Of a DNA stretch of 64,000 nt, positions 1-59,340 are shown in pieces (within the stretch, counting starts at the first letter, position 1; every line of letters starts with the position of its first letter). The translations under genes were made by a program, and so were the position numbers. Origin of the DNA: a bacterium. Lineage in GTDB: Bacteria; UBA8248. The stretch is taken from contig OZ253442.1 of the NCBI GenBank assembly GCA_965261085.1, positions 3,712,001 through 3,776,000 on the forward strand. The letters run 5' to 3'. The notes under the pieces are model-generated. The model was not told the DNA's origin. It searched no databases and saw only the letters and a list, made by a program, of their open reading frames with translations.

Positions 1-1
1 G

Positions 2-9867: not shown

Positions 9868-10239
9868 TCATTCTGAAACGCCCTTCAGGATCGCGGCCTG
9901 CGATTCACGGGCGTCCTTCCCGATCCGATCGAGCTCTTCCCGGCGTCCTTCCCGGACCATTTCATCGCGTTTGAGCGTCGAAAGAAGGTAGACGCCGCGA
10001 TAGATGCGCTCGAACTGGGCTGCAATCCCGGGCGGGAACGCTGAAGAACTTGCGGTCAGCTTGCCCGTAGCGAAACCCGCCGCGGCATGGCGCACGAGCT
10101 CGGCGGCCGTCATTCCGCGCTCTGCGGCCTCCTGTTCGATGCACGCCCACTCGAAATCGGAAAACCGGATTGATCGCGGCGAGCGCGATTCGGCAGGTTT
10201 CTCGCCGGAATCGGCGGCGGCGGAATGGTTTTCGGTCAT
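9868..10239 (-). CDS. Ribbon-helix-helix (MobC/CopG-like) protein
   Basis: PRSIRFSDFEWACIEQEAAERGMTAAELVRHAA pattern; GGAG RBS before MTENH. Confidence 0.7.
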   Translation of the reverse strand: MTENHSAAADSGEKPAESRSPRSIRFSDFEWACIEQEAAERGMTAAELVRHAAAGFATGKLTASSSAFPPGIAAQFERIYRGVYLLSTLKRDEMVREGRREELDRIGKDARESQAAILKGVSE

Positions 10240-10335: not shown

Positions 10336-10394
10336 GTGTGCTCGTAGCATACATGCAGGAAATAGCCTATATCCACCGTATGCTGATAGCATAC
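10336..10394. promoter_or_regulatory. Two palindromic GT(A/G)TGCT-N3-AGCATAC boxes
   Basis: GTGTGCTCGTAGCATAC 10336-10352 and GTATGCTGATAGCATAC 10378-10394; the same box recurs at 22.9 kb and 54.3 kb, each time upstream of an RHH gene. Confidence 0.65.
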
Positions 10395-10502
10395 ACTTTC
10401 TCCAACAATACCGTGCCTTCTTCAGGCGCCGTTTACGCAAGAGGCTGCCTGACAAGTGCGCGCCCTGTTGCCAGGGCATCACCGATGCGCCGGGTGTGAG
10501 GC

Positions 10503-11851: not shown

Positions 11852-11855
11852 TTAA

Positions 11856-12194: not shown

Positions 12195-12206
12195 GGCATT
12201 CCTCCG

Positions 12207-12284
12207 TGTTTCAAATATGAAACAAATAGTGTTTGATTCATAAAACAATCTGGGCTATGGTTTCACTGTTTCACTTGTGAGACG
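12207..12284. promoter_or_regulatory. Three imperfect TGTTTCA-N4-TGAAACA palindromes (putative CapH operators)
   Basis: TGTTTCAAATATGAAACA 12207-12224, TGTTTGATTCATAAAACA 12230-12247, TGTTTCACTTGTGAGACG 12267-12284 in the divergent capH/CD-NTase gap. Confidence 0.6.
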
Positions 12285-12452
12285 TTTTTGACAGAAGAAT
12301 GAAAATCAGTCAAGTCCCTGCTTTTTACGAAACTGAGGTATTCAAACAACATTGCCGCAGGAGCCGGACTGTGAAGCGCAAGACGACGATTATGAAATGA
12401 TTGAGGTTTGCCAAGCGTTTTTGATCAATTATTTACCCAAATGAGGAATGCT

Positions 12453-14383: not shown

Positions 14384-14593
14384 CGCTTCGAAATCTGCTG
14401 TTTCCGGTGAGGTGATCCTTTGATTGGTTCCAATAATTCACGGGCTCAATTTGTGCAATCCGACGTTCGGTTGGAGATTGTAGAGTGTGCATAGCGAGCG
14501 GAATTGCCGAGTCAGGGCTGATTTGTGTTTCAGTTAGTTATCTCGGGGCATAGAGCAGTGAAATTGATGGTCAACACCAGTTAGGTAGTAATT

Positions 14594-15694
14594 ATGAAGA
14601 TATTGTACAGACATTTTCTCAAATCACTGATCGACTGGGTATTCAGGCGGTGCTCCCCGGCCCTCATAATGAAGAGCGCCGGACTGGTGTGCACAACGCT
14701 TGCTTTTGGCGCAGGCTGGGTATTGGATGTATCAATTCCCTTCCTAGATGGCCAGATTGATATCAGCTTCGATAGTTCTGGTGGGGCGCCAACTTTTTTG
14801 GTCAATGCAGTAGGCATCGTTGGGTTGGGTCTATTGATAACCGGGTTCTGTTGGGAATTTTTTCGTTACTGGGCTGAACGAAAGCGCCTTGATCGCAAGA
14901 AGGTTATCGTCGTCGAAGCTCGTGGACTACGTGATTCGGGCGGAACGCCTCTTATCGAGGCAATTCCCGCGAGTTTGGAAGGGCACCGGGACCATGTCCT
15001 GATCGACATGCGCCAGCGCATCAAGGACGGTGAGATTGTGGAGCCGAAAGCGGTGCTTGGGGAACTAATTTCACTGCCCACTGATCTGAAACGCCGGGAA
15101 AACGGGATCGACCGCCGCGACCTCACACTGGTTTATGGTGGCCTTGCACCGGTGCCGTTCACATTTCTGACCGGTGTATTAATCGACGATGAGAGTGTGA
15201 TTGTAATCCTGGATTGGGATCGGCACTTGGAAAATTGGCGAGAACTTGAGGATTCGGATGATGGCAAGCGTTTCATATGCTCGGGACTCGACTGCATACC
15301 GGTGGATGCACGCGAAGTTGCTTTGGCGGTGTCCGTTTCCTACAGGGTGAATACGGATGATGTTCGTGCCAAAGTTGGCGAAATACCTGTAGTTGCACTG
15401 GAGCTTGAAGGTGGCTCGCCGGATTGCCACTGGTCCGAGGATAAGCAACGCGCTCTTGGTAAGCAGTTTCTTGAAACCGTTATCGGCTTGGGGAATCGCC
15501 GTGTTGAATGTATCCACCTGTTCCTCGCTGCGCAGAACAGTATCGTCTTCAGGTTTGGTAGACTGTACGACAAGCGAAACCTGCCCAAAGTTGTCGTCTA
15601 CCAGTATCAAAGGTCCATCGTTCCACCATATCCGTGGGGTATTCTGATGCCTGTATGCGGAATTGAACAGCCTATGCTAGTGAGCGGCAAATAA
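14594..15694 (+). CDS. 2TM-SAVED CBASS effector (Cap14-like)
   Basis: Two N-terminal hydrophobic segments, then SAVED motifs YGGLAPVPFTFLTG, VALAVSVSY, IHLFLAAQNSIVFRFG, YPWG. Confidence 0.88.
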   Translation: MKILYRHFLKSLIDWVFRRCSPALIMKSAGLVCTTLAFGAGWVLDVSIPFLDGQIDISFDSSGGAPTFLVNAVGIVGLGLLITGFCWEFFRYWAERKRLDRKKVIVVEARGLRDSGGTPLIEAIPASLEGHRDHVLIDMRQRIKDGEIVEPKAVLGELISLPTDLKRRENGIDRRDLTLVYGGLAPVPFTFLTGVLIDDESVIVILDWDRHLENWRELEDSDDGKRFICSGLDCIPVDAREVALAVSVSYRVNTDDVRAKVGEIPVVALELEGGSPDCHWSEDKQRALGKQFLETVIGLGNRRVECIHLFLAAQNSIVFRFGRLYDKRNLPKVVVYQYQRSIVPPYPWGILMPVCGIEQPMLVSGK

Positions 15695-16220
15695 CATTCA
15701 TATTTCGATTTTCGATACAGTGTTGTGAATCGTTTTTCTTCGAGGTTACCCGAAATAAATTCTGCCAAGCGATTTTTTATGACTCGCCCGGCACGCCGAG
15801 TAACAACGCCAATACTTACATACTCTGGCGTTACAATGCTGAGGCCATCGATTGACGCTTGAGTATGATGACCCGGTTTGCTCCAGGTATTATTGGGCTT
15901 ACTTTGGATAAGACATGGCATGAGAGAGTCGATTTCCGGAAAACGGATTGCGCCGAACCTGCCTGGCTCTAGCCAAAAAGGATCGGAGCATACCGCCTGT
16001 AGTTAGCGAGGAAACTTAAGAGTACTTTGTCAGAACTTTCAATTGGCCTTTTGAGACGGACAAAAGAGGGTTCCAATTATCGGTATCTCGCCAAGAAAAT
16101 TTCCCCGCTCCTTTTGAGACACTAGGTCATTGCCATCGGCACGGCCCTGTCCGACAGCGCTCAGGCAAGGTTCGTGGATTTTATTCCTACTTGATTTTCT
16201 GGCTAGAATCAGACATATTA

Positions 16221-16244
16221 TCCTTATATATTATTATACAAGGA
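16221..16244. promoter_or_regulatory. Inverted repeat upstream of AbiEi (putative autoregulatory operator)
   Basis: TCCTTATATA-TTAT-TATACAAGGA (one mismatch) just before the start codon. Confidence 0.5.
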
Positions 16245-16252
16245 CAAATAGA

Positions 16253-16858
16253 ATGACATTGGGACTCAAAGAACAACCTGAAGAAATCTTCCGCGAGCAC
16301 GGTGGCCAGCTTCGAATGAGCGAGGCTCTCGCTTGCGGGCTCACGCGCTACACCCTGTATGCGCTCAGGGACAGGGGCGTCGTCGAGCAAATCACCAGGG
16401 GCATTTACCGGCTTCGGGAACTTCCCCCGCTCGGCAACCCGGATCTGGTGACTGTGAGCCTTCGCTTTCCCAAGGCCGTCGTTTGCCTCGTCTCGGCACT
16501 TGCTTGGCACGGCATCACAACCCAGATACCACATGTGGTTTCCGTGGCGGTGCCGAAGGACTCTCGGACGCCTACACTCAAATATCCTCCCATCAAAGTA
16601 CACAAATTCTCCCGTGAAGCATACGGACCCGGTATCGAAGTACATCTGCTCGATGGAGCGCCAGTCAAAATATACAACCCTGCAAAAACCCTGGCTGACT
16701 GTTTCAAGTTTCGTAACAAGATCGGAATGGACGTCGTGCTTGAGGCGCTGAAATTCCACAAGGCGCGAAACGGGCTCAACCTCGGCGAACTACTCGAATA
16801 CGCCAGGATTTGCCGGGTCGAAAAGGTGATGCGGCCCTATCTCGAGGCGATTCTGTGA
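16253..16858 (+). CDS. abiEi: Type IV TA antitoxin, AbiEi family
   Basis: wHTH ...VEQITRGIYRL, VVCLVSALAWHGITTQIP, KIYNPAKTLADCFKFRNKIG. Confidence 0.88.
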   Translation: MTLGLKEQPEEIFREHGGQLRMSEALACGLTRYTLYALRDRGVVEQITRGIYRLRELPPLGNPDLVTVSLRFPKAVVCLVSALAWHGITTQIPHVVSVAVPKDSRTPTLKYPPIKVHKFSREAYGPGIEVHLLDGAPVKIYNPAKTLADCFKFRNKIGMDVVLEALKFHKARNGLNLGELLEYARICRVEKVMRPYLEAIL

Positions 16859-17757
16859 CACCTCCGAGAAACGCGCCCGCCTCCGTGAGGCAACGCCTCC
16901 TGAACCGGGCCAGGAGCGATGGGCGTCTCTTCGGCGAAATGCTCCAGTACTTCGCCATGGAGCGGTTTCTCTACCGGCTGTCCCGCTCCGCTCACGCCGA
17001 GCGGTTCATCCTCAAGGGCGCATTGATGATGAAAGTCTGGCGTTCGGCGGAGTTTCGCCCAACCATGGACATCGATCTGCTCGGTAGGACGAGCAACGAG
17101 GAGGCTGAAGTCGCCGCGCAAATACGCGACATCCTGCTCGTCGAAGTGGAAACGGACGGACTCGCCTTCGATCCGGATTCCATCCGAACCGAACGGGTCA
17201 CGGAGGATGCGGACTATGGCGGTATCAGGGTTCGATTCTCGGGCGCATTGGATACCGCGAGAATCCACATGCAGATTGACATCGGATTCGGGGACGTCGT
17301 ATATCCAGGACCTGAAGAATCCGAGCTTCCGGTCATGCTGGATTTCCCGGCACCGAGACTGCTCTGCTACAGCCGCGAGAGCTCCATCGCGGAGAAGTTC
17401 GAGGCCATGGTCAAGCTCGGCATGCTCAACAGCCGGATGAAGGATTTCTACGACATCTGGTTGCTGTCCCGCCAGTTCGACTTTACGGGGGACGAATTGG
17501 CCCGGGCCATTCGGCTGACCTTCGAGCGACGGGACACCCAGTTGCCACTCGAGATCGAGGCGTTCTCCAGACCCTTCGCCGATGCCAAACAAACCCAGTG
17601 GACGGCGTTCCGTAATAGGCTCCAACAGCTACATGTTCCCGAATCTTTCGCGGAAATCACGGCTTCGGTGGAGCGGTTTCTCTCGCCCGTCGTCGCTGCC
17701 CTTTCCTCCGGAAAACCGAGCCCGGCAAACTGGGCCGCACCCGGCCCATGGATCTAA
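16855..17757 (+). CDS. abiEii: Type IV TA toxin, AbiEii nucleotidyltransferase
   Basis: FILKGALMM, RPTMDIDL, IAEKFEAM, SRMKDFYDI; GTGA overlap with the antitoxin. Confidence 0.9.
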   Translation: MTPPRNAPASVRQRLLNRARSDGRLFGEMLQYFAMERFLYRLSRSAHAERFILKGALMMKVWRSAEFRPTMDIDLLGRTSNEEAEVAAQIRDILLVEVETDGLAFDPDSIRTERVTEDADYGGIRVRFSGALDTARIHMQIDIGFGDVVYPGPEESELPVMLDFPAPRLLCYSRESSIAEKFEAMVKLGMLNSRMKDFYDIWLLSRQFDFTGDELARAIRLTFERRDTQLPLEIEAFSRPFADAKQTQWTAFRNRLQQLHVPESFAEITASVERFLSPVVAALSSGKPSPANWAAPGPWI

Positions 17758-18102
17758 GGTGGAATCTTTCCATCGAAACGAATACCTTCTCGGGTTTGTC
17801 ATCTCCAAGATATGACTTGAACGCAGTATACTCGATTCTAGTCGACTAGACGAGATGAGATTGGGGGTTTTGCGATGAATTGCCCGAGAAACAAGTCCCG
17901 AACTATGTAGACGATGCGTATCCCATTGAGGATAAGTAGGATATAATCGTATTCGTGTGTAAAGGTCTTCATCTTCACAGGTTGGTTACCTCAAGCACAG
18001 CTTCATGTGACACAAGAAGTCTTCCGCCCGCAAACTTAATTCGGTATACAGTGCCTCAAATGCCCCTGATGGACACGAGTGGAGGAAAGTGGCGGAACGA
18101 CC

Positions 18103-19839
18103 ATGAGTAAAGCGGATACAGGATTGACTAAGGAAAACTTCGAAGCGGAACTCAAGAAAAACTATACCGAAGGTTCATTGTTGAATTTCCTGCTTTCCAC
18201 CGTGAACCAACTACAGTCTATAGGACAGGATGAATTGGCGCGTGAGACTGTAGTCGAATTGCATAATAATGGTGAGATTGACGTTCTCGATACGAATCAA
18301 TGGGCAACATTTGAAACAGAAGGGAATTTATCATTTTTCCAGTTTCAGCATTTTTTTAACGAAATGCTTCCCAAGTTGTCTGCTTCACATCAGAGTGTGA
18401 TGTTCGTCGTAAAAAAACTTGTCCAACTTGGCGGGAAAGACCTGGCAGCCAACGAACCAAATGTCGCATTTGTTGAATGGTGCCGACAAGATGAAAAACA
18501 AGCCTTATCGATCCTGGAAGACGCCCGCCAGGGAAATCAACTGGCGCTTGACTATCTCATTTTTGCTCTAGACTCAGGAAATTATTTCGAGGAAGCGAAG
18601 GCTTTTCTGGAAAGTGATTACCCAGAGGCCCGCCTTAGCGGAGCGGCGTCCATGGGAAGGATGTCACTGTCCGCTTCACAGGAAACCGAGGCGAACGCTG
18701 TTATCATCAGGGGACTTGAACAATGTGATGATCCTGGCTTTGCGGCAAATCTCTATGCCGCTGCATTTGCGATAGCTGAAAAATCGGACAAAGCAGATCT
18801 ATTAATTCTTAAGACTGTAGCCGAGTTGTCTGCGAGGCACCTTTCGCCGAACCTACAATCCCAAGCCGTCCGTTTTCTATTCAGGAACGCCAAAACTCTC
18901 GATCGGGATTGCCTCGATGCAATCATGAAGCTCTTGAGAAAAATTGATCCACAACACATCGAAAATTTAGAAATACTGGACTTTGCGCTCTCGGCGCTGA
19001 TCGAGGCCGGATTTTTGGATACCGTTCTTGACCTGCTCGAGAACCTTGTCGAGACGAGTTCCGGTAAAATATCAATCGCGCGATTTAAGGACTTCTCCAG
19101 GGAAATCTCAGAGGACAGCGACACACTGGCAAGCGTGGCAGTACGCTGGTTTGGTGCTGGAGATTTGAGTATTTGTGCAGGATTCGCAAGTCTCCTTTCA
19201 GAGGGTGCGCGACTAAATCTCGGGAAAGGGGGTCTTCCTAAAGTACACGGAGATTTGGTTTTCATGTGCCGGAAGGTTGTTGGACATCTTTTCATGAAGC
19301 CGCTCGTTGCCGCTTCTTTTTTGCTGAGTGTCATCAAACATTCAGATGAAAGCGGCAAAAAAGCCGCTGCAGATCTTCTGTCTTATCCTCTTCTGATCAG
19401 TTACGAGGGCAAACTTAGAGAGTACCTCGAAGAATTCTGCGCTAATTCCAAAGGCTCAGCCGCAGATACTGTATTGGAGGTGCTGGATCGAAATGCAGCC
19501 TATCTGAAGGACTTGGAGGGGATTGAAACTCTAGTCGAGTTACAACCTAGTGAAGAACAGCGACAGGCAGAAAGAGAGCGTTGGAATGAAATGGCGCGAA
19601 AAATCGCAAAGGAAGTTGAGCGGAACTCCATACTAAGTCATATCCCTAAAAGTTACCTTTTATACGGGCGAAGTGTGTTGACTTTCGTAGAAGATCCAGA
19701 CGGCTCGACCCGGAAAATTGAAGCGCCGATGGGAGAAGTATCATCTGAGAGCGAGCATCCCAGGCTCGATATTATTGACCATGTGGGCCTCCAGTTTTTA
19801 TTGTTTTCCTTCAAGGCCGAGAAAAAAGTGATTCCATGA
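18103..19839 (+). CDS. Uncharacterised alpha-helical (HEAT/ARM-like) protein, gene A of a two-gene cassette
   Basis: 578 aa, L/A/E-rich helical pattern (e.g. PEARLSGAASMGRM); low GC; ATGA overlap with the next gene. Confidence 0.75.
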   Translation: MSKADTGLTKENFEAELKKNYTEGSLLNFLLSTVNQLQSIGQDELARETVVELHNNGEIDVLDTNQWATFETEGNLSFFQFQHFFNEMLPKLSASHQSVMFVVKKLVQLGGKDLAANEPNVAFVEWCRQDEKQALSILEDARQGNQLALDYLIFALDSGNYFEEAKAFLESDYPEARLSGAASMGRMSLSASQETEANAVIIRGLEQCDDPGFAANLYAAAFAIAEKSDKADLLILKTVAELSARHLSPNLQSQAVRFLFRNAKTLDRDCLDAIMKLLRKIDPQHIENLEILDFALSALIEAGFLDTVLDLLENLVETSSGKISIARFKDFSREISEDSDTLASVAVRWFGAGDLSICAGFASLLSEGARLNLGKGGLPKVHGDLVFMCRKVVGHLFMKPLVAASFLLSVIKHSDESGKKAAADLLSYPLLISYEGKLREYLEEFCANSKGSAADTVLEVLDRNAAYLKDLEGIETLVELQPSEEQRQAERERWNEMARKIAKEVERNSILSHIPKSYLLYGRSVLTFVEDPDGSTRKIEAPMGEVSSESEHPRLDIIDHVGLQFLLFSFKAEKKVIP

Positions 19840-21569
19840 AGCTCATCATCAAGGAATATTTGGCTTCGCTCCGAGAACGAAACGAGCTGGACGCCATCCT
19901 TCCCAATCTTTTAAGCGAGCTTGGTTTCAACGTTATGTCTCGCCCATCGATTGGCGCCCGTCAGCATGGTGTCAATGTTGCAGCCGTAGGCCCTGATGAA
20001 AACGACGGTGGCAAACGAAAGCTGTTCTTGTTCAGCATCAAGCCCGGTGACCTCAGTCGACAGGACTGGGATGGCAATCCACAGGCTTTGCGTCCATCAC
20101 TCAACGAAATTCGAGACGTCTACATTCGGAACAATATCTTGAAGATACATAAAGATTTAGACATCGTTATCTGCATCTGTGTAGGTGGGGACGTAAATGA
20201 GAATGTTCGCCCACAGTGGACGGGATACGTCGCTCAAAATTCAAATGAGAAAATAAGTTTCGATGAATGGAATGGAGATAAACTATCGGAATTGCTCCTC
20301 ACCGGTGTTCTTGGAGAAGAAATCCTACCTTCAGAACAGCGCACTAATTTCCGGAAGGCAGTCGCCATGGTCGATCAACCAGACGTAGCCTACCGCTTCT
20401 ACATGCGCTTGCTCAAAGCCCTTCTCCAACAACCGGAGCAAAAACCGAAGCAGAAAAGAACATCGTTGCGGCAAACATATATTTGCCTGTGGGTTCTCTA
20501 CGTTTGGGCGCGTGGAGAGGGAAATCTCGAAGCACCCTATCGGGCAAGCGAAGCTGCGATGCTTCACGCCTGGCATTCGGGAAAAGAATTTGCAGGGAAG
20601 AAATCAAAGAGTGCAAAAGAGACATTAGGCATCATTGATCAGTTCATCAAACTTCATATGATTATCTCCACAGATTTTATTGAAAATAAAATCCACCCCT
20701 TTTCGGAAAAACTTCACGCTCTTTCCACGGCTGTGAATTCCGCCAAATCGGTAGATGTGAATTTATTCTTGTTTGAAACACTGGGAAGAATCGGAGCCTT
20801 TGGACTTTGGAATTATTTTTACGCTGAATCAGCAAGTGGCGAACAAAAGGAATACTTTCGAGCAAGAGCTCATAAGGCTCTGAACACGGGCGTCCATGCC
20901 ATCAATAATAACCCCGCTCTTCTCTCTCCCCTCCGAGACGATCATGCGATTGAAATCATGATATTCATGTTGCTCGCACAAGCATGCAATGCCATTCACT
21001 CGGTTAAGGGATGGATAGAAGAGCTTTCATCCCGTTGCGTTTTCGCGTTGACATGGCGAATCTATTACCCCACACCCAAGATTGACTACCCCGATTTGAT
21101 TCGTCATCCTCGAGATCAATCCGACGAATACTTTCGAGAGGCAACACGTGCCAGCATACTTTATCCAGTTTTGGCTTGCTGGTTGACACTTTTGGGGAGC
21201 AACGAGGCATTATCGAAACTGGCTGATTGTGTTTCTTCAGAACTTTCTCATTGCAATCAACAATTGTGGCTCCCCGATGATAAAACCGATGAGAAAATTT
21301 GGATCGGCGAACATTACCACGACCACGGAAAAGCCTTAACTCATCTGCCAATTCAAAAAGATGGCAAAAATCTGATTGATCGTATCAACAAAGCTACTGC
21401 CGATAATGGTGAATTCAGAAAAATTTCTGCCGTCTCAAGCGGCCTTTGGCCAATGTTCGTTTCCGCATGTCGGCACTACCGAATGCCACTTCCCCCACAA
21501 TTTTGGACTATGCTTTCTCGACGAACTAACGGAGATCAAAGAAACGTTCCAGACAAATCGAGCGATTGA
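19836..21569 (+). CDS. Uncharacterised protein with N-terminal Mrr/PD-(D/E)xK-like domain, gene B
   Basis: ELDAILPNLLSELGF...RQHGVNVAAVG...LFSIKPGD...FDEWNGDKL restriction-endonuclease-like pattern followed by a helical region. Confidence 0.7.
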   Translation: MKLIIKEYLASLRERNELDAILPNLLSELGFNVMSRPSIGARQHGVNVAAVGPDENDGGKRKLFLFSIKPGDLSRQDWDGNPQALRPSLNEIRDVYIRNNILKIHKDLDIVICICVGGDVNENVRPQWTGYVAQNSNEKISFDEWNGDKLSELLLTGVLGEEILPSEQRTNFRKAVAMVDQPDVAYRFYMRLLKALLQQPEQKPKQKRTSLRQTYICLWVLYVWARGEGNLEAPYRASEAAMLHAWHSGKEFAGKKSKSAKETLGIIDQFIKLHMIISTDFIENKIHPFSEKLHALSTAVNSAKSVDVNLFLFETLGRIGAFGLWNYFYAESASGEQKEYFRARAHKALNTGVHAINNNPALLSPLRDDHAIEIMIFMLLAQACNAIHSVKGWIEELSSRCVFALTWRIYYPTPKIDYPDLIRHPRDQSDEYFREATRASILYPVLACWLTLLGSNEALSKLADCVSSELSHCNQQLWLPDDKTDEKIWIGEHYHDHGKALTHLPIQKDGKNLIDRINKATADNGEFRKISAVSSGLWPMFVSACRHYRMPLPPQFWTMLSRRTNGDQRNVPDKSSD

Positions 21570-22043: not shown

Positions 22044-22070
22044 TGATTTGCCTCTTTCCTAGGTGGATGA

Positions 22071-22211
22071 TGTCCTAAAGTTGCTGGAAATTTCAAAAAG
22101 AAGTGCATCCTCGGCAGAGGAACCACAAAACTGTGTCGGTTATCGCTGGCATCAAACCGAGGAGGTACCCCATTGAGATGAGATTACAGGCATCGATGCA
22201 CACTCGCCAAG
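22071..22211 (-). repeat. Conserved ~140-bp non-coding element, copy 1 (putative promoter + structured leader)
   Basis: Colinear with 59341-59479, sharing TGTCCTAA, CGGCAGAGGAA, CGAGGAGG, GAGATTACAGGCATCGATG, CACTCGCCAAG. Confidence 0.75.
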
Positions 22212-22375: not shown

Positions 22376-22675
22376 CTACGCCGATCTGCCCGGTAAATCG
22401 GGCGCGACTTCGGAGATATTTCTGCTGATTTGTTTGATCTCCTCCTCTCGTCCGGTCCTTTCCATGTCTCGAATGATGGCCTGCGCGGTGAACATCGCCG
22501 AGCGCAACAGGTGGATTTCCGCTTCGATTCGTGGCCATTCTCGTCCCTCGATCGCCTCGAGCGCCGCCGAAATCATCAACCGGCTCGGGGAAATCCCCCG
22601 CTCATGTGCGGCTTTTTCGATCCGTCGCCAGTGGTCTTCATCAACTCGGATGTGCTTGTTGATGGTTTTTCCCAT
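22376..22675 (-). CDS. RHH relaxosome-accessory-like protein
   Basis: NKHIRVDEDHWRRIEKAAHERGISPSRLM RHH pattern; adjacent to putative oriT A. Confidence 0.75.
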   Translation of the reverse strand: MGKTINKHIRVDEDHWRRIEKAAHERGISPSRLMISAALEAIEGREWPRIEAEIHLLRSAMFTAQAIIRDMERTGREEEIKQISRNISEVAPDLPGRSA

Positions 22676-22883
22676 GCCGTTTTCCCCCGTTTTATCCTCT
22701 CAATCGTCGTTCATGTGAGATGGTTTCGGCACTCGCCGGTGCCTTCCGGAAGCCGAAACACTAGACGCGCACCGGTTTCCCGTGCCGGGTCACGCCGCTC
22801 GGTCACGTCCCTACGCATCCGTGTCCAGCGTTGTTTTTGCGACGCTGGCCGGGAGGAATCATATTTGCGCGCACCCCCGTCAC

Positions 22884-23103
22884 GTATGCTCATGGCATAC
22901 GCGCAGGAAATCCTCGTGTTACGCCGTATTGCAATGAGCATACGCACTTCCTGAAGTGAGGGGATTTCAACGGGATACAGGCGTATGCTCAGAGCATACG
23001 CTTGATCCAACAACAGGCGGGCGGTCTTTGTCGTCGTTGGCGCAGAACGCTGCATGCCAGGCGCGCGCATGGTCTGCACCTGCAGCCCGCTGCGTGGGGT
23101 GTG
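22884..23103 (+). other. Putative oriT A (MOBF/F-like nic site with GTATGC boxes)
   Basis: Boxes at 22884-22900, about 22926-22943 and 22983-22999; hairpin GCAGC-CC-GCTGC (23082-23093) running into TGCGTGGGGTGT^G (23091-23103), matching the F nic core as I recall it. Confidence 0.75.
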
Positions 23104-23444
23104 AAAACAGGAGCCGCCGAAGGGCGTCAAAAGGACCGAATTTGAGGAACAAACGATGGGGGAATCGAAGCCGGTGAGAGAGGCGGTCGGGAGCCGCCGC
23201 GGCGATTGAGTGGACGGAAGCGAACGGAGCAATGCGGGGAGGTGTGTACAGGGGTGTGTACACCAGTGCATGGAGTAGTGCCGGTGGTATGACCAGCCGG
23301 GTCTGCACCGCCGTGATGCGAAGTGGTGGGCGGTATGACCAGGGAGGTCACCACCGGTGCGGGTGCAAATGGTGCGAGCGGTGGTCAACGAGACAAACGA
23401 GCCGCGCCGCCGGGGTGGCGACGCGACCCGCCGGGTGGTGTGTC

Positions 23445-24365
23445 CTATGCGGCGACGCGCTGGACGGGGATGCCGAGGCTGCGGGCCTTGTCGACGAGGT
23501 TGTCGGTGATGCCGCTGCCGGGGAATGCGATGACGCCCTTGGGGAGCAGGGCCAGGAGTTCGTCGTTGCGCCTGAATGGAGCCGCCCGTCCGTGTGCGTC
23601 CCAGTCGGGCTTGCAGACGACCTGGTGGACGCCGTTCCGCTCCGCCCAGCCTGCCGCTATCTTCTCAGCCCCCGGACCGCCGCCGTGGACGAGCACCACG
23701 TCTGCGTACTTCGCTTTAAGCCTGTCGAGATGCCCGATGATGGCGCTCGCATCGTTCGCCTCCTTGCCGCCTGCGACGGCGACGAGGGTTCCCTGGGGGA
23801 GGTGCGCCGTGTTCTCGCGGTCCTTTCTCGCCCTCTGGAAGTCTCGCGCGTCGATCATGGCCGAGGTGAGCTTGCCGGTCTGCGAGGTGTGTGACCCTCG
23901 TCGTGGCCGCCAGACCTCGCCCGTCTCGACGCGGTAGGCCTCGGCTGCGGTGTCTCTCAGTTGTTCGAAGGCGTCTCTGCGGTTGCTCAGGTTCTGCGCC
24001 CGGTCGGTCTTGAGTTCGAGTTCGCGGGAGCGGATCTCCGATCCGTCCTGTTCGCGCTGCAGTTCGCGTATGCCGGGGAGGAGCCTGTCGGCGGCGCGGT
24101 CGAGGCGCTGTGTCTGTGCGTCGAGGGTGTTGACGAACCCCCAGAGGAGGTTCGCTCGCTCATCCGCAAGTTGTGTCCCGTCGGGCGCGGCCTGTGCGAG
24201 TAGGTGGAAGGCCTTGATGACGGCGGAGGAGGATTCGTTCTCGTCCCATACGACGCGGGAGTCGAACTCGTCGCGGCCCGGTGTAGCGCCGAAGAGCGCG
24301 GCCTGCTCGCAGACCATGGCGGTGAAGGACTGTTCCTGAGCTTCGATGGTGTGGATGTCGTTCAT
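23445..24365 (-). CDS. DUF2493 / YspA-like SLOG-domain protein, copy A
   Basis: LVAVAGG, VLVHGGGPGAEKIAAGWA, PDWDAHGRAAPFRRND, IAFPGSGITDNLVDKA; AAGGAG RBS. Confidence 0.85.
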   Translation of the reverse strand: MNDIHTIEAQEQSFTAMVCEQAALFGATPGRDEFDSRVVWDENESSSAVIKAFHLLAQAAPDGTQLADERANLLWGFVNTLDAQTQRLDRAADRLLPGIRELQREQDGSEIRSRELELKTDRAQNLSNRRDAFEQLRDTAAEAYRVETGEVWRPRRGSHTSQTGKLTSAMIDARDFQRARKDRENTAHLPQGTLVAVAGGKEANDASAIIGHLDRLKAKYADVVLVHGGGPGAEKIAAGWAERNGVHQVVCKPDWDAHGRAAPFRRNDELLALLPKGVIAFPGSGITDNLVDKARSLGIPVQRVAA

Positions 24366-24449
24366 GATTCTCTCCTTGAGAATAGAGTGTAGCGGAGTCT
24401 GTCTCCGCACGTGATGTGTCACGAGTCCCACGCGCGCGCAGGGAAGCCA

Positions 24450-24571
24450 CCATGGCCGCAAGGCCCGTCGCGGGGAGGGTGCGGGTGGTGCGGGCGCACA
24501 AGCGAGCGAAGCGAGCGCGGAGCCACGGCCGCGCTCTTCCCGCGACGGGGTTCCTGCCTTGCGAGCCATGG
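24450..24571. promoter_or_regulatory. Long stem-loop upstream of DUF2493 (candidate ssDNA promoter / ssi), copy A
   Basis: Arms CCATGGCCGCAAGGCCCGTCGCGG and CCGCGACGGGG-TTCCT-GCCTTGCGAGCCATGG with inner hairpin GAGCGCGG/CCGCGCTC. Confidence 0.55.
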
Positions 24572-24747
24572 CCGGAACGCAGTGGAGGACCCCGCAGGGG
24601 TTGGCGAAGCGAGCACGTGTGGGAAGATGGGACATCACGTCGGAAGAGTTAATGCCACAGATGGGAGCAGGTGAGCCTCTCTCGCATTCTTCCCGGGCGT
24701 TCACCCTTCTCGTCGACCAGCGAGAGCATTCCCTCTGGGTCGAAAGC

Positions 24748-24780
24748 AAAAAAACAGGCCGACGCGCGAGGCGCCGGCCC
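24748..24780 (-). terminator. Intrinsic terminator after ssb A
   Basis: GC-rich stem followed by a T-run on the minus strand. Confidence 0.6.
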
Positions 24781-24789
24781 GTTGTGAGG

Positions 24790-25248
24790 TTAGAAGGGGA
24801 TGTCGTCGCCGAGAGCCTCGGGCGCTCCGTTTACCGCCGCCCCGGCCATCACCATCTGCGGCGCCGCCGCAGTCTCGGGGTGCGCGCCGTTCCCGTTCAC
24901 CTTGTCGAGGAACTGCACGCGTCCGCCCGGCGCCAGGAGGATCTCGGTCGAGAACCGCTCCGATTCTTCCTCTTCCTTCTTCCAGCGCCTGGTCTGGAGC
25001 TTGCCCGCCACGTAGACCAGACGGCCTTTCTTCGCGTGCTTCTCGAACATGTCGACCAGCCCGGGCTGGAAGGTCACGACCCGGTGCCACTCGGTCTTCT
25101 CCACCCGCTCGCCGCTCTGCTTGTCGACGTAGCCCTCGTCGGTGGCGATGGAGAGGTTGGCGACGCGTCCGCCGTTCATGAGGTGGTTGATGGTGACGTC
25201 TGCGCCGAGACGCCCGATCAGTTCCGCGCGGTTGAGTCCGAATGCCAT
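24790..25248 (-). CDS. ssb: Single-stranded DNA-binding protein, copy A
   Basis: LNRAELIGRLGAD, KTEWHRVV, KGRLVYVAGKLQTRRW, C-terminal DDIPF. Confidence 0.95.
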   Translation of the reverse strand: MAFGLNRAELIGRLGADVTINHLMNGGRVANLSIATDEGYVDKQSGERVEKTEWHRVVTFQPGLVDMFEKHAKKGRLVYVAGKLQTRRWKKEEEESERFSTEILLAPGGRVQFLDKVNGNGAHPETAAAPQMVMAGAAVNGAPEALGDDIPF

Positions 25249-30003: not shown

Positions 30004-30156
30004 CGGCGTGAGCGACTTCCCCCGACCCCTTCCTACGCCTGTATCGCCGTTCCCACCACCCGGGTACAGGGTGGCGCCCGGCAGGTCGTTGAAGACGGTG
30101 ACCAGGTGGCCGGCGGCGACGGGTTCGCGATTGAGCTTATGGAAGATGATGGGCTG

Positions 30157-30241
30157 CACGGTCGATACCGTCATCGCCGCGATGGAGGCAAACACCCCGA
30201 TTCAACCAACCAGAAGACGCTCTACGTCGAGATCAGCCGCC
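30157..30241 (+). pseudogene. Relic of relaxase-helicase 3' region
   Basis: gataccgtcatcgccgcgatggaggc...aaccagaagacgctctacgtcgagatcagccgc nearly copies about 8875-8960, with a frameshift. Confidence 0.75.
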
Positions 30242-30249
30242 CCCGGCGC

Positions 30250-30423
30250 CTACAGCAGGTCTTCGGCTATGCTCGCGGCGACCCGCTCGGCGGACTCGCG
30301 CACCGAATCGCGCGCGAGATGCGCATAGCGTGAGGTGGTCTCGATCCGGGCGTGGCCCAGGAGTTTGCCTATCACGGTGAGTCCCTCGCCCAGCGCGAGA
30401 GCCCTCGAGGCAAACGAATGGCA
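30250..30423 (-). pseudogene. 3'-terminal fragment of a tyrosine integrase
   Basis: Translates CHSFASRALALGEGLTVIGKLLGHARIETTSRYAHLARDSVRESAERVAASIAEDLL*, homologous to the ends of both intact integrases. Confidence 0.8.
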
Positions 30424-30651
30424 CAGTTAATGTATAAAATCAGCCTGTTAGACATTGGTGCGAATGTCATGTCAATTATATGATAAATATATGTAATAAT
30501 TGATGTTGTATATTATTTTGCACCTTCTCCGCTCTTGCATCTGCGACAACAACAGACTAAAATAGCCATGGATTTGACCTCAGTCGGTTGCGGATTGATG
30601 ACGGTTTTGTAATCCGATCGGCAGCGCGAAGGACCGTATGGAGACATTCCC

Positions 30652-31830
30652 ATGGCCCGGAAGGATGCGGTCAAGCTCAGCAAACGAGTCGTCGACGCAC
30701 TCACGGTCAAAGACGGGGACGCCGTCTTCTGGGACCGGGAACTGCCCGGTTTCGGGTTGCGGGTCTACACCGGCGGCCGCAAGGTCTACGTCGTACAGAC
30801 GCGGGGGCCGTCCGGTGGACCGAGGCGCGCCTCCATCGGCCGGCACGGGGACATATCCGCCGAGGAAGCGCGGCGTGAGGCCGCCGTGGTGATCGACCGC
30901 ATCAAGCGGGGCGAGGACCCGCATCCTCCACCTCCCGCACCGGAACCGACGGTGGCCGATCTGGCCGAGCGCTACATCCAGTCGCATGTAGAGGTGAACT
31001 GCCGGCCGAACACCGTGGAAGTGTTCCGGCGGGTGGTCAAACTATACATCGCGCCGGAACTGGGAGCACTCGCGCTCTCCGCGGTGGGACGCTCCCATGT
31101 CTCGGCCCTCCACTACAAGCTCCGGGACAAGCCCTACCAGGCGAACCAGACGGTGAGCGTGCTGGCGAAGATGTTCAAGCTCGCCGAGGCCTGGGGCATG
31201 ACGCCGCCGGGGCGGAACCCTTGCCGCTCGGTGCGTCGCTACAGGGAACGGCGCCGCGAACGGTTCCTGACGCCCGAGGAATACCGGCGGCTGGGAGAGG
31301 TGCTGGACGAGGCCGAGAGGGACGGTTCGGTGCTCGCCTCGGGGGTCGCGGCTCTCCGCCTCCTGTTGCTGACCGGATGCCGGAAGAACGAGATCGTGAC
31401 GCTGCGGTGGGACGACGTGGACCGCACGGCGGGCGAGTTCAGGCTCGCCGATGCGAAGACGGGCGCGCGGCGGGTTCCGCTGACGCCGGCGGTGGAGGCG
31501 GTGCTCGCCGGGGTTCCGCGCCTTCCCGGCAACCCCTGGGTCATCACCGGCCAGAATCCGGGAGATCATCTCAAGAACCTGGACGGCATCTGGCTCAAGC
31601 TCAGGGCGCGCGCCGGGCTCGGGGGCGTCCGCATCCACGACTGCCGTCACAGCTACGCGTCGAGGGCGCTGGCCCTCGGCGAGGGGCTACCGATGATCGG
31701 CAAGCTGCTGGGCCACCACAAGGTCACGACGACGGCGCGGTACGCGCACCTCGCGCGCGATACCGAGAAGGCGTCCGCCGTGAAGGTCGGCGGCAGCATC
31801 GGGGCGGACGTTCTGAACGGCTCCACGTAA
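30652..31830 (+). CDS. Tyrosine recombinase/integrase with arm-binding domain (int 1)
   Basis: FWDRELPGFGLRV arm domain; LTGCR, K(TG), HDCRH, LLGH, RY catalytic set. Confidence 0.93.
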   Translation: MARKDAVKLSKRVVDALTVKDGDAVFWDRELPGFGLRVYTGGRKVYVVQTRGPSGGPRRASIGRHGDISAEEARREAAVVIDRIKRGEDPHPPPPAPEPTVADLAERYIQSHVEVNCRPNTVEVFRRVVKLYIAPELGALALSAVGRSHVSALHYKLRDKPYQANQTVSVLAKMFKLAEAWGMTPPGRNPCRSVRRYRERRRERFLTPEEYRRLGEVLDEAERDGSVLASGVAALRLLLLTGCRKNEIVTLRWDDVDRTAGEFRLADAKTGARRVPLTPAVEAVLAGVPRLPGNPWVITGQNPGDHLKNLDGIWLKLRARAGLGGVRIHDCRHSYASRALALGEGLPMIGKLLGHHKVTTTARYAHLARDTEKASAVKVGGSIGADVLNGST

Positions 31831-31842
31831 GGGAGAAGGGAT

Positions 31843-33060
31843 ATGGCGAGGTTTGAGACGAAGACGATCTCGAGGCGCACGGTGGAGACGCTCGCGGTCG
31901 AGAAGGACACGGTGTTCTGGGACAGCGAACTGAGCGGTTTCGGGGTACGGGTCTACCCGTCGGGGAGCAAGTACTACGTGGTGCAGACCCGAGCGGGCGG
32001 CCGGGCGGCGAAGCGGGTGACGGTGGGCCGCCACGGCATCGTCACGGCCGAGGAGGCGCGGCGGCGGGCGGCGCTCATCATCGCGCGGATCAAGGCGGGC
32101 GAGGAGCCCGTGCCCGAACCGCCGGCGGAGGGCCCGCGGGTGGCGGAACTCGCCCGCGCGTATCTCGAAGAACACGTCGCGGTGCGCTGTAAGCCGAGAA
32201 CGGCGGAGATGTACGGCCAGGTCGTCAGGAAACACATCCTGCCCGCACTCGGCAGGATGCCCGCGCTTGCGGTCGAACGCGTCCATGTGAGCGGGTTGCA
32301 CCACAAGCTCCGGGATACGCCGATCATGGCGAACCGCGTGGTGGACACGCTCTCGCGAATATACAACGCCGCCGGGGAGCGGGGACTGATCCCCGAGGAC
32401 CACAACCCGTGCCGGCTGGTGGTCAAGTACCGTGAGCGCGCCCGCGAGCGGTTCCTGACCGGGGAGGAGTTCCGGCGTCTCGGCCGGGTGCTCGCCGAGT
32501 CGCAGACCCGCAAGGGGGTTTCGGTCCACGCGGCGGCGGCTATCCGCCTGCTCCTGCTGACCGGATGCCGGAAGGGCGAGATACTCAACCTGCGCTGGGA
32601 CGAGGTGGACCTGGAAGCCAACGAACTGCGGTTGCCTGACACCAAGACCGGGCCCCGGACGATCTCGCTCTCGCCCGAAGCGGCCGGCGTCCTGGCGGCG
32701 GTCCCGCACGTTCCGGACAACCCCTTCGTCATCCCAGGCAAGGTCAAGGGCAGGCCCATGCGCAACCTGAACGACCCCTGGGATATCGTCTGCGAGCGTG
32801 CGGGACTCACGGACATGCGAATCCACGACTGCAGGCACAGCTACGCGTCCAGGGCCCTGGCGCTGGGCGAGTCTCTCCCGATGATCGGGAAACTCCTCGG
32901 CCACACCCAGGTCGAGACCACGGCGCGCTATGCGCACCTCGCGCGGGACTCGGTGCACGAGGCGGCGGTGCGGGTCTCCGACAGTATCGCGGCGGATATC
33001 CTGAAGGGGTACCGGCAGGTGTCGCTACAGGCGCGCTCCGGGCAGCGAACGAGAAAGTAG
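31843..33060 (+). CDS. Tyrosine recombinase/integrase with arm-binding domain (int 2)
   Basis: FWDSELSGFGVRV; LTGCR, KTG, HDCRH, LLGH, RY; paralog of int 1, 12 bp downstream. Confidence 0.93.
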   Translation: MARFETKTISRRTVETLAVEKDTVFWDSELSGFGVRVYPSGSKYYVVQTRAGGRAAKRVTVGRHGIVTAEEARRRAALIIARIKAGEEPVPEPPAEGPRVAELARAYLEEHVAVRCKPRTAEMYGQVVRKHILPALGRMPALAVERVHVSGLHHKLRDTPIMANRVVDTLSRIYNAAGERGLIPEDHNPCRLVVKYRERARERFLTGEEFRRLGRVLAESQTRKGVSVHAAAAIRLLLLTGCRKGEILNLRWDEVDLEANELRLPDTKTGPRTISLSPEAAGVLAAVPHVPDNPFVIPGKVKGRPMRNLNDPWDIVCERAGLTDMRIHDCRHSYASRALALGESLPMIGKLLGHTQVETTARYAHLARDSVHEAAVRVSDSIAADILKGYRQVSLQARSGQRTRK

Positions 33061-51096: not shown

Positions 51097-51534
51097 ATGG
51101 CATTCGGACTCAACCGCGCGGAACTGATCGGGCGTCTCGGCGCAGACGTCACCATCAACCACCTCACGAGCGGCGGCCGCGTCGCCAACATCTCTATCGC
51201 CACCGATGAGGGCTACGTCGACAAGCAGACAGGCGATCGGGTCGACAAGACCGAGTGGCACCGGGTCGTGACCTTCCAGCCCGGGCTGGTCGACATGTTC
51301 GAGAAACACGCGAAGAAGGGCCGTCTGGTCTACGTGGCGGGCAAGCTGCAGACCAGGCGCTGGAAGAAGGACGAGGAGGACTCCGAACGCTTCTCCACCG
51401 AGATCCTCCTGGCGCCGGGCGGGCGCGTACAGTTCCTCGACAAGGTGAACGGGAACGACAACGGCAACGGCGCGAACCCCGAGGCGGCGGTGGCGGCGTC
51501 CGCAGGTGTAGTAGGGGAAGACATTCCATTCTGA
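51097..51534 (+). CDS. ssb: Single-stranded DNA-binding protein, copy B
   Basis: OB-fold motifs and EDIPF tail. Confidence 0.95.
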   Translation: MAFGLNRAELIGRLGADVTINHLTSGGRVANISIATDEGYVDKQTGDRVDKTEWHRVVTFQPGLVDMFEKHAKKGRLVYVAGKLQTRRWKKDEEDSERFSTEILLAPGGRVQFLDKVNGNDNGNGANPEAAVAASAGVVGEDIPF

Positions 51535-51543
51535 TCCCAACAC

Positions 51544-51574
51544 GGGCCGGCGCTTCGGCGCCGGCTCTTTTTTT
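51544..51574 (+). terminator. Intrinsic terminator after ssb B
   Basis: GCCGGCGC-TTCG-GCGCCGGC stem followed by TCTTTTTTT. Confidence 0.7.
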
Positions 51575-51599
51575 GCTCTCCATCCAGAGGAGGTCCGCC

Positions 51600-52604
51600 A
51601 TGCCCCAAACACCCTCTCCCGCGGCCGAAATCGCCGTGGCGCTCGCCTCGCGCGCCGAGGACGTCTGCCGCCGCTATCTGCCGCGGGGCAAAAAGCAGGG
51701 CCGCTACTGGGTTGCGGGTGATCTCGGTGGCGCGCCAGGACGCTCGCTCTTCGTCCGCCTCTACGGCCCGGGCCTGCCGGGCAAGTGGACCGACGCTGCC
51801 ACCGGAGAGCACGGCGACCTGCTCGACTTGATCCGCCGCCGAAGCGCCGCACCCACGCTCCGCGCGGCCATGGACGAAGCCCGCGCCTTCCTCGCACTGC
51901 CGGCTTCGCCGGCCCCGGGCGAGGGAGGGACGTACAACGCGACAGAAGCGGCGCGGCGCATCTGGCGGCGTTGCCGCACGGTCGACGCCGCCCCGGCCGA
52001 GGCCTATCTCCGCGCGCGGGGGATCACGCGGTACCGCTTCCCCTCCCTGCGCTTCCATCCGGCGCTCTTCCACCGGGAGGCCGACCGGCGTCTGCCCGCA
52101 CTGGTCGCCGCCGTGACCGACCCGGACGGCGCGCTTCACGGCGTACACCGCACCTGGATCGATCCCCGGACGTCCGCCAAGGCCGGCGTCCTCCCGTCCC
52201 GCAAGGCGCTCGGCAGCGTCTTCGGGCGCGCCGTGCGCTTCGGGGTTCCCGGCTCCACGCTCCTGGTCGGGGAGGGGGTCGAGACAGTGCTCTCGATCGT
52301 CACCGCCGCGCCCCGGGTCCCCGCGGCGGCAGCGCTATCCGCCGGGAGCCTCGGCGCCTTCGTCCCGCCCGAAGGGGTTTCTCGACTCATCATCGCACGG
52401 GACAACGACGCAGAGGGGGAACGAGCCGCAGAGCGTCTCGCCTGGCGCTGCGCCCGAGCCGGGTTAGCCACCCGCGTCATCGTCTCCGAACGCGGCGACT
52501 TCAACGACGACCTGCTCACCCTGGGGTCACGGCGACTCGGTCTCAGGCTCGCCGCCCTCCTCCCGCTGGTCGAGGAGACGACCACACGCGCCGGAGAGGG
52601 GTGA
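51600..52604 (+). CDS. Toprim-domain primase-like protein (DUF7146/Toprim_3 type)
   Basis: GKWTDAATGEHGDLLDLI, AEAYLRARGI, GVHRTW, LVGEGVET, IIARDND, DFNDDL; GAGGAGG RBS. Confidence 0.85.
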   Translation: MPQTPSPAAEIAVALASRAEDVCRRYLPRGKKQGRYWVAGDLGGAPGRSLFVRLYGPGLPGKWTDAATGEHGDLLDLIRRRSAAPTLRAAMDEARAFLALPASPAPGEGGTYNATEAARRIWRRCRTVDAAPAEAYLRARGITRYRFPSLRFHPALFHREADRRLPALVAAVTDPDGALHGVHRTWIDPRTSAKAGVLPSRKALGSVFGRAVRFGVPGSTLLVGEGVETVLSIVTAAPRVPAAAALSAGSLGAFVPPEGVSRLIIARDNDAEGERAAERLAWRCARAGLATRVIVSERGDFNDDLLTLGSRRLGLRLAALLPLVEETTTRAGEG

Positions 52605-52733
52605 ACACTTGAGATGGATGCGAGAGAGGCTCAACTGCTCCCATCTGTGGCATTAGCTCTTCCGTCGTGATGTCCCATCTTCCCACACGTGCTCGCTGCG
52701 CCAACCCCTGCGGGGTCCTCCTCTTCGTTCCGG

Positions 52734-52855
52734 CCATGGCTCGCAAGGCAGGAACCCCGTCGCGGTAAGAGCGCGGCCGTGGCTCCGCGCTCGCTTCGCT
52801 CGCTTGTGCGCCCGCACCACCCGCGCCCTCCCCGCGACGGGCCTTGCGGCCATGG
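52734..52855. promoter_or_regulatory. Long stem-loop upstream of DUF2493, copy B
   Basis: CCATGGCTCGCAAGGC..CCCGTCGCGG pairs with CCGCGACGGGCCTTGCGGCCATGG; near-identical to copy A. Confidence 0.55.
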
Positions 52856-52938
52856 TGGCTTTGCTGCGCGCGCGTGGATCGTATGGGAATCACGTTCGGA
52901 GACTGGCTCCGGCGTACTCATTCCACAAGGAGAGAATC

Positions 52939-53859
52939 ATGAACGACATCCACACCATCGAAACTCAGGAACAGTCCTTCACCGCCATGGTCTGCGAGCA
53001 GGCGGCGCTCTTCGGCGCTACACCGGGCCGCGACGAGTTCGACTCACGCGTCGTCTGGGACGAGAAGGAGGCCACCTCCGCCGTCATCAAGGCCTTCCAC
53101 GTACTCGCACAGGCCGCACCCGACGGGACGCAACTAGCGGATGAGCGCGCGAACCTCATGTGGGGCTTCGTCAACACCCTCGACGCACAGACACAGCGCC
53201 TCGACCGCGCAGCCGACAGGCTCATCCCCGGCATCCGCGAACTACAGCGCGAGCAGGACGGCTCCGAGATCCGCTCCCGCGAACTCGAACTCACCACCGA
53301 CCGCGCCCAGAATCTCTCCGACAGGCGTGACGCCTTCGAACAACTGAGAGACACGGCAGCCGAGGCCTACCGCACAGAGACCGGCGAGGTCTGGCGGCCT
53401 AGGCGAGGGTCACACGTCTCGCAGACCGGCAAGCTCACCTCGGCCATGGTCGACGCGCGCGACTTCCAGCGGGCGAGAAAGGACCGCGAGAACACCGCGC
53501 ACCTCCCCCAGGGAACACTCGTCGCCGTCGCAGGCGGCAAGGAGGCGAACGATGTGAGCGCCATCATCGGCCACCTCGACAAGCTCAAGGCCAAGTACAC
53601 AGACGTCGTTCTCGTCCACGGCGGCGGTCCGGGGGCGGAGAAGATAGCGGCAGGCTGGGCGGAGCGGAACGGCGTCCACCAGGTCGTCTGCAAGCCCGAC
53701 TGGGACGCTCACGGACGGGCCGCACCCTTCAGGCGTAACGACGACCTGCTCGCCCTCCTGCCCAAGGGCGTCATCGCGTTCCCAGGCTCGGGCATCACCG
53801 ACAACCTCGTCGACAAGGCCCGCAGCCTCGGCATCCCCGTCCAGCGCGTCGCCGCATAG
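52939..53859 (+). CDS. DUF2493 / YspA-like SLOG-domain protein, copy B
   Basis: Close paralog of 23445-24365. Confidence 0.85.
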   Translation: MNDIHTIETQEQSFTAMVCEQAALFGATPGRDEFDSRVVWDEKEATSAVIKAFHVLAQAAPDGTQLADERANLMWGFVNTLDAQTQRLDRAADRLIPGIRELQREQDGSEIRSRELELTTDRAQNLSDRRDAFEQLRDTAAEAYRTETGEVWRPRRGSHVSQTGKLTSAMVDARDFQRARKDRENTAHLPQGTLVAVAGGKEANDVSAIIGHLDKLKAKYTDVVLVHGGGPGAEKIAAGWAERNGVHQVVCKPDWDAHGRAAPFRRNDDLLALLPKGVIAFPGSGITDNLVDKARSLGIPVQRVAA

Positions 53860-54198: not shown

Positions 54199-54418
54199 CA
54201 CACCCCACGCATCTGAAGATGCTTGCTCCCCATGCGCGCGCCTGGCATGCAGCGTTCTGCGCCAACGACGACAAAGACCGCCCGCCTGTTGTTGGATCGA
54301 GCGTATGCTCTGAGCATACATCTGTATCCCATTGAAATCCCTGGGTTCCGCTCCGGGCGTATGCTCATGGCATACACTGAAAACAGGCTATTTCCTGCAA
54401 TGTATGCTATGAGCATAC
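54199..54418 (-). other. Putative oriT B
   Basis: Minus strand reads GCATCT-TC-AGATGC-GTGGGGTGT^G (54222-54199); boxes at 54303-54319, 54359-54375 and 54402-54418. Confidence 0.75.
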
Positions 54419-54591
54419 GCGACAGGCCTGCGCTGCGATATGATAGCTACCAGTTTAGTAGTCCGGTCTCAGGGGTCATTCGGAGGCCTTCGAGGTTCGA
54501 GACGGGTGTGCTCGGTGATAGGAAACAAGAATTATCCGATCATTTTGGGACCGGAGTCGATGAAAATATTCACGAATGAATGACGAAACGA

Positions 54592-54897
54592 ATGCTGCAG
54601 ACGACACAAAAGAACATCAGAGTCACGCCGAAACAGTGGAAACGCGTCTAACAAGAGGCCGAAATAAGGAGTGTTTCAGCGAACAAACTCGTGGTCGAAC
54701 TCACGATGGAGGCCCTGGAGCGCCGAGAATGGCCGCACACCGAAGCGAAAATCCACCTGTTGCGCTCCGCGATGTTCGCCGCCCAGGCCATCATCCGCGA
54801 CATGGAGAAGGCAGGACGCGAGGAGGAGATTCAGCAAATCAGCAGGAATATCTCCGAAGTCGCACCTGAATTGCCGGTCCAATCGGCACGGGATTGA
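54592..54897 (+). pseudogene. RHH gene with premature stop, copy B
   Basis: MLQTTQKNIRVTPKQWKRV, TAA at 54649-54651, then in frame ...EWPHTEAKIHLLRSAMFAAQAIIRDME. Confidence 0.75.
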
Positions 54898-59332: not shown

Positions 59333-59340
59333 GTTGGTAA

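Follow-up and report, generated by a model that had tools for sequence, protein, structure and literature searches.

The stretch of bacterial chromosome analysed here (64,000 nucleotides, hereafter the window) carries two small hairpins, each followed by a core like that at the nick site of the F plasmid, which raises two questions: are these origins of transfer (oriTs) of the MOBF type, and which part of such an origin would choose the relaxase that serves it? Site A (23082..23103, plus strand) has a 5-bp hairpin followed by an F-identical single-stranded core and reads GCAGC-CC-GCTGC-GTGGGGTGT-G, with a predicted nick at 23102/23103. Site B (54199..54222, minus strand) has a 6-bp hairpin and the same core, reads GCATCT-TC-AGATGC-GTGGGGTGT-G from 54222 to 54199, and has a predicted nick at 54200/54199. 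A preliminary description of this DNA had placed both sites correctly and to the letter, and the F nic sequence that it gave agrees with the available part of PMC2504302. It had presented them as two separate sites in a GC-rich host; we find that A and B are parts of one inverted 1.87-kb homology (87% identity), that a third site is present and that the genome has 58.7% G+C. The third, site C (10476..10498, plus strand; predicted nick 10497/10498), has a GCATC stem with a 3-base loop and lies 1.3 kb beyond the window relaxase, past the relaxase and an RHH gene; its core is non-canonical, with C where T is usual, unlike that of A and B. Nick positions are predicted by analogy with F together with the rule that the base after the nick is a purine.

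The hairpins of A and B had been described as differing in sequence while keeping their pairing; the pairing is indeed kept, but just one of the five shared stem pairs differs (G-C in A, T-A in B). Around the nick, the two sites have 69 identical bases, an 18-base divergent block holding the hairpin and then 60 identical bases. Both also have a further small hairpin (CGCC-GAAG-GGCG) on the 3′ side of the predicted nick, 12 bases away (23115-23126, plus strand, and 54176-54187, minus strand). This hairpin is the most stable element in the predicted fold of A; it is kept in most family members and is absent at C and at several metagenome sites.

Taken alone, the core 13-mer was rejected as evidence, its two matches in the window (two mismatches allowed) standing at the chance level of 2.0 expected. 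Core and hairpin together occur nine times in the genome, compared with 0–5 times (mean 1.1) in eight simulated genomes, and the three exact genomic copies of the 12-base core all follow a hairpin. Energy-based folding gives the hairpins no support (z 0.45 and 0.07), with a program that cannot draw a two-base loop. A structured RNA or tRNA was considered and discarded, Rfam matches and tRNA both being absent from the window.

The layout of A and B recurs at the genome’s other sites. Eight of the nine genomic occurrences of core with hairpin belong to the family, and one of the eight is identical to C through duplication. Family matches were found in 18 of the 41 genomes searched; 60 of the listed family places were retrieved, and one genome (G002) alone holds 11 distinct sites. 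Scanning a single genome from each species with a pattern that included GTGT returned at least 119 loci, many by chance, which include Alpha- and Gammaproteobacteria and Binatia MAGs; several of the MAG names belong to what we take to be sponge symbionts. Among the matches listed, 81 sites lay in long-flank loci, and the stem was perfect at 22 of the 25 with RHH, SLOG or relaxase context compared with 9 of the 56 without. From 128 distinct profile hits, we kept the 91 with context and dropped 36 without, one further hit being cut off by a contig end. The stem is perfect over at least 5 bp at 85 of these 91 context-defined sites, and the base after GTGT is G at 68, A at 23 and a pyrimidine at none; a purine 3′ of nic was in none of the patterns used to pick sites. 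In metagenome loci chosen by relaxase similarity alone (the best 80 of 144), the 19 strict sites all share the strand of the relaxase gene and lie downstream of it, with none on the other strand. A core variant one base longer (GTTCCGGTGT) occurs at L277, L143, L036 and other loci, for the most part in company with relaxases of a single clade and RHH of class IIIb; the spacing in MOBF origins is usually fixed. Our literature search returned no paper on the present oriT family; the supplements of two preprints, which list new oriT families, may bear on it.

Each site is accompanied by a small opposite-strand gene that starts about 250–500 bases upstream. At A this gene is of class I (22376..22675, minus strand), intact and divergent from the oriT; at B it is of class II (54580..54897, plus strand), with an in-frame TAA at 54649 that contigs of runs X3 and X4 (possibly the source sample) match without differences; at C it is of class III (9868..10239, minus strand), intact and tail to tail with the relaxase gene. 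Weak but consistent evidence suggests that these genes encode NikA-like RHH proteins: the Pfam NikA-like family matches 34 of 42 site-adjacent proteins at E 0.01 or better, with weak scores (E 6e-5 for the RHH of A, below the cut-off), and the RHH family profile finds the solved NikA RHH domain in the PDB, weakly, at E 7e-4. The predicted RHH fold (mean pLDDT 59.8) gave no match at E 0.001 or better, with NikA only at E 3, and the TraM and TraY Pfam families were not among the matches of the 42 site-adjacent proteins. A fourth RHH-like frame (3301-3561), truncated and without a hairpin-core site beside it, lies upstream of the coupling protein gene; its DNA is 71% like B’s RHH gene.

The interval that separates the hairpin from the RHH gene contains palindromic boxes, near −260, −215, −170 and −110. 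Those of A comprise three ATGCT-type boxes (22884-22900, one ending at 22943, and 22983-22999), putative and likely RHH-binding sites, and a distal GCGAC-type box (22835..22845, plus strand) of the type that goes with A’s own class I RHH. Likewise, B has three ATGCT-type boxes (54303-54319, 54359-54375 and 54402-54418) and a distal TACCA-like box (54447..54460, minus strand) of the type that goes with its own class II RHH, while C has two ATGCT-type boxes (10336..10394). The leading region of A starts at 23445..25248 (minus strand) with a SLOG/YAcAr gene (23445-24365) and SSB (24790-25248), and that of B at 51097..53859 (plus strand) with SSB, a Toprim primase-like gene and a SLOG/YAcAr gene. 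In both, the genes lie on the strand opposite the motif, with the nicked strand as template, which fits the layout given in the available part of PMC11541004, where SSB and other leading-region genes are read from the transferred strand.

As the preliminary description had said, a MOBF relaxase is encoded in the window (relaxase-helicase gene at 6318-9179, plus strand; NF041492 MobF, 290 bits against a cut-off of 100), with a coupling protein gene at 4225-6318 on the same strand and no mating-channel genes beside the two. The relaxase retains the TrwC tyrosine pairs and the HUH motif, and its nearest solved structure is TrwC (E 4e-64). Across the genome there are five MOBF relaxases, four coupling proteins and three loci with a TraC-type ATPase of the F-type channel, one of which, scanned gene by gene, holds a near-complete F-type set; a VirB4-type channel (PF03135) was rejected, with none in the genome. 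A full element at genome 217-252 kb unites integrase pair, relaxase, coupling protein, channel, leading region, oriT and RHH gene. Another module (genome 2491064-2514000) has relaxase, coupling protein and channel, with no oriT found on either side. Window positions 1-10713, running from coupling protein and relaxase through RHH gene to oriT C, are duplicated at genome 1166645-1155933 (99.98% identity); the DNA differs after 10713, 215 bases past the nick, and 10550-10726 is a many-copy intergenic repeat.

How closely does the family resemble MOBF origins already studied? The 12 bases 5′ of nic and the G after it are identical in A, B and the oriT of F, which TraI (MOBF) serves, as given in the accessible part of PMC2504302; the same source reports that a G-to-A change after nic leaves F transfer unchanged. 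Also shared with F are a hairpin ending in TGC, a small, putatively RHH-type gene on the lagging side, an F-type channel and, in the full element, an oriT about 29 kb from the relaxase (compare oriT_F in the excerpt of 10.1101/2024.01.30.577996). The family differs from F in its G+C-rich stem of 5–6 bp, where F has a T-rich proximal arm, in a NikA-like accessory protein in place of TraM and TraY, in consisting of chromosomal elements with an integrase pair and many copies per genome, and in transfer genes that point along the transfer direction. For R388 (TrwC, TrwA), the portions of PMC4176350 at hand state that the base 3′ of nic must be a purine, that G17, T18 and T23 are conserved and that GTGT is the usual MOBF U-turn. 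The purine after nic is shared, and in R388 numbering the core of A and B has G17, T18, T23 and GTGT at 22-25, while C is without T18; unlike R388, the family has an F-like core with GTGT rather than GTCT, and its RHH gene lies outside the operon of coupling protein and relaxase. The family has the testable sequence features of MOBF origins and would work like the oriTs of F and R388, but it is not the oriT of F proper. Sequence, context and comparison all support the earlier reading of A and B as F-type-core oriTs, and we regard their identity as MOBF-type oriTs as very probable.

What became of the elements to which they belong? The unit downstream of A has a leading region as in the full element, yet ends in a relaxase 3′ remnant (30151-30246, plus strand) and an integrase 3′ remnant (30253-30435, minus strand). 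An intact tandem tyrosine integrase pair (30652..33060, plus strand) is likely the left end of B’s block. The integrase remnant in the window and a second piece 69 kb away (genome 3811554-3812570) are complementary and broken at catalytic-motif codons; because the integrase at 3812570 stops where the window remnant begins, the arrangement suggests that one element was inserted into the integrase of another, giving a 69-kb block. The block, whose ends are placed by these two pieces, contains B and the intact integrase pair, and was without a match to relaxase, coupling protein, TraC, TraG, TraU or TraB. No exact att repeat of 9 bases or more was found at its ends, and tRNA-based att sites were rejected, genuine tRNA genes near the elements being without duplicated ends.

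Such truncations invite the view that A and B are decaying remains of conjugative elements, once functional and no longer used for transfer. The stop codon in B’s RHH gene and the remnants closing A’s unit would fit, as would the broken RHH genes at 11 of 52 class I/II sites, yet hairpin, core and boxes are all intact at both A and B, the integrase pair kept with B is intact, helper transfer genes are present in the genome and B’s origin is nearly unchanged in runs of two other studies (contig pieces from X1 and X7 are identical to it or differ by one change). Decay is an improbable account of the two sites, and the integrated elements of A and B, which have no intact relaxase in their downstream units, are instead likely to be mobilised in trans.

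If so, what determines the helper? The preliminary description had proposed that the differing stems may set relaxase specificity. In an alignment of 82 distinct rows, 99.3% of stem cells pair, far above slid partners used as a control; the fourth stem pair is G-C in 35 rows, T-A in 32, C-G in 13 and T-G in 2, with A-T not seen, and the other four are near invariant. The covariation score was reached in none of 500 shuffles, a control that ignores kinship. The GCACC/GGTGC stem of R388, as given in the available part of PMC4814116, is the C-G type of the family. Since B’s allele recurs in the genome and in relatives, A and B seem to carry two of three old stem alleles, apparently swapped as a block.

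Each of 61 relaxases was assigned the closest origin, on position only; relaxases without a located origin were left out, and one of the 42 listed pairs from relatives was dropped because no origin was found for it. The 13 nearest relatives of the window relaxase, joined to it with support of 98/76, all occur with the A/B core, while their stems are GCAGC in nine, GCATC in two and GCACC in two. Relaxase pairs at least 92% identical (n = 66) differ in stem in 11 cases, in core in 12 and in RHH class in 7, and mispairing of relaxases and origins in mosaic islands could inflate all of these counts. On the relaxase tree, the stem required 15 changes (shuffle mean 23.6), the core 19 (35.6), RHH class 9 (27.4) and the box 16 (25.6). 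Tree changes and close-pair counts together make the stem the least tree-bound label; the box label is only moderately bound, about like the stem, and the core is not strictly bound either.

These results weigh on the idea that the variable stem pair sorts origins among co-resident relaxases and is a determinant of specificity. One tight relaxase clade with a constant core uses three stems, relaxases 96–98% identical adjoin different stems, and every one of the three stems combines with several cores, which makes stem-set specificity doubtful. What keeps the idea alive is that the variable base sits in the arm that TrwC reads: according to the available sections of PMC4176350, this proximal arm is essential in vivo in R388, and only its wild-type sequence was transferred. 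In addition, the 15 changes on the relaxase tree fall below the shuffle minimum of 16, and only three pair types are in use. On balance, we judge a sorting role for the stem unlikely, slightly more so than decay.

The boxes offer a different candidate. Among the 79 sites that have an RHH gene, the type of the most nic-proximal box tracks RHH class, with class III mixed: class II goes with TACCA at 34 of 42 sites, class I with GCGAC at 6 of 10 and class IIIb with ATGCT at 8 of 10, on labels set after viewing the sequences and with kin that are not independent. ATGCT boxes occur at 6 of the 52 class I/II sites, including A and B, and five of these six mosaics retain a distal box of their own class. 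Otherwise, ATGCT boxes in this genome are found at the relaxase-adjacent origins C and 1126692, which have intact class III RHH genes. The notion that an element’s own RHH decays after a box swap was set aside, with broken genes at 3 of 6 mosaics compared with 8 of 40 own-type sites being too few to say.

A defence cluster at window 11276-21569, between C and A, encodes a CapP-like peptidase, CBASS (cyclase, E2, SAVED-2TM), an AbiE pair and OloA-OloB (PADLOC). Further defence-like cargo around B (33707-46308 and 55238-61546) includes an AbiJ-domain protein, a PDC-M31 pair, a second AbiE pair, a 1737-aa protein with no Pfam or PADLOC match and a 1364-aa protein with a weak Cap4/LmuA nuclease end. 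A 142-base non-coding repeat lies among cargo genes near A and B (22070-22211 and 59340-59479, 80% identity), with a third copy at genome 1151023-1151114. It is very unlikely that C and A, in direct orientation, are the start and stop signals by which a relaxase alone excises the 12.6-kb defence cassette (CBASS, AbiE, OloAB), so that this cassette would travel in circular form and enter again at a different oriT. The two sites do share the plus strand and flank the cassette, and TrwC recombines and integrates at oriT copies (PMC3264647), but four runs were without a well-supported C/A nick joint, yielding only short-sided, unplaced joints, the duplicate of the C unit ends past the nick and not at it, and the core of C departs from the canonical form.

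We return to mobilisation in trans, and think it fairly probable that A and B are trans-mobilised oriTs whose helper is chosen by RHH boxes and core. RHH dimers would bind the boxes and open the origin, and a MOBF relaxase would read the proximal arm and core and nick after GTGT; the likeliest nicking enzyme is the window relaxase or its identical duplicate, given the pairing of all 13 nearest relatives with this core. The strand would pass through a channel whose genes lie elsewhere in the chromosome, with the SSB and primase genes entering the recipient ahead of the rest. The hairpin would form on the transferred strand and serve termination, in a model drawn from the available parts of PMC4814116 and PMC4176350, and this proposed role would account for pairing being kept while one pair varies. 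Helper choice would reside mainly in the RHH boxes and core, not in the stem. The nic-proximal boxes of A and B, of the relaxase-linked RHH type, would have been gained by block exchange; carrying them, both sites would use the relaxase-linked RHH proteins in trans, and B would have to do so, if RHH is needed, because its own gene is broken. Against this account, site C, adjacent to the window relaxase, has a core that differs from that of A and B, and B’s broken RHH gene also fits decay.

A more far-reaching reading, which we offer tentatively, is that these genomes hold a natural combinatorial set of oriTs, built by exchanging blocks (the RHH gene, some four box slots, the hairpin allele and the core allele) between co-resident elements, of which there are as many as a dozen or so. 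Relaxase-less derivatives such as A and B would re-address themselves to a helper by acquiring the nic-proximal boxes of that helper, with their own distal box retained.

The mechanism itself is already known, with relaxase-less hitching, RHH-set subtypes and origin replacement in print in the available parts of 10.64898/2026.01.13.699239 and PMC8136818. In the pWBG749 family of Staphylococcus aureus, an RHH accessory factor (SmpO) and its sites set oriT subtypes, origins are replaced by recombination and relaxase-less elements ride on helpers (PMC8136818, as far as available). Those are Gram-positive plasmids with another relaxase type, whereas here we have integrated MOBF elements, the hitchhiking ones mostly retain an RHH gene and a single origin mixes box types from slot to slot; binding was demonstrated there, whereas here it is deduced from the association of RHH class with box class. 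Like A and B, the iOriTs described in the accessible portion of 10.64898/2026.01.13.699239 are integrated, have an oriT without relaxase or channel and carry defence cargo near it. They come, however, from six nosocomial species and are hitchers unrelated to their helpers beyond the oriT, whereas A and B appear to be deletion derivatives of the helper family, with leading region, integrase pair and relaxase remnant in common.

The alignment defines an oriT family, complete with a predicted nick, in conjugative elements of uncultured bacteria; no relaxase in the plasmid collection searched exceeds 50% identity to those of these elements. The family allows one to recognise, in these genomes, both the leading region and the islands that carry defence genes but no relaxase, and its natural variants (three stems, several cores and four or five box types) form a test panel for the specificity of MOBF oriTs. 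If the combinatorial reading is true, recombination inside the origin would rewrite helper choice, and one pool of tolerant MOBF relaxases would serve all.
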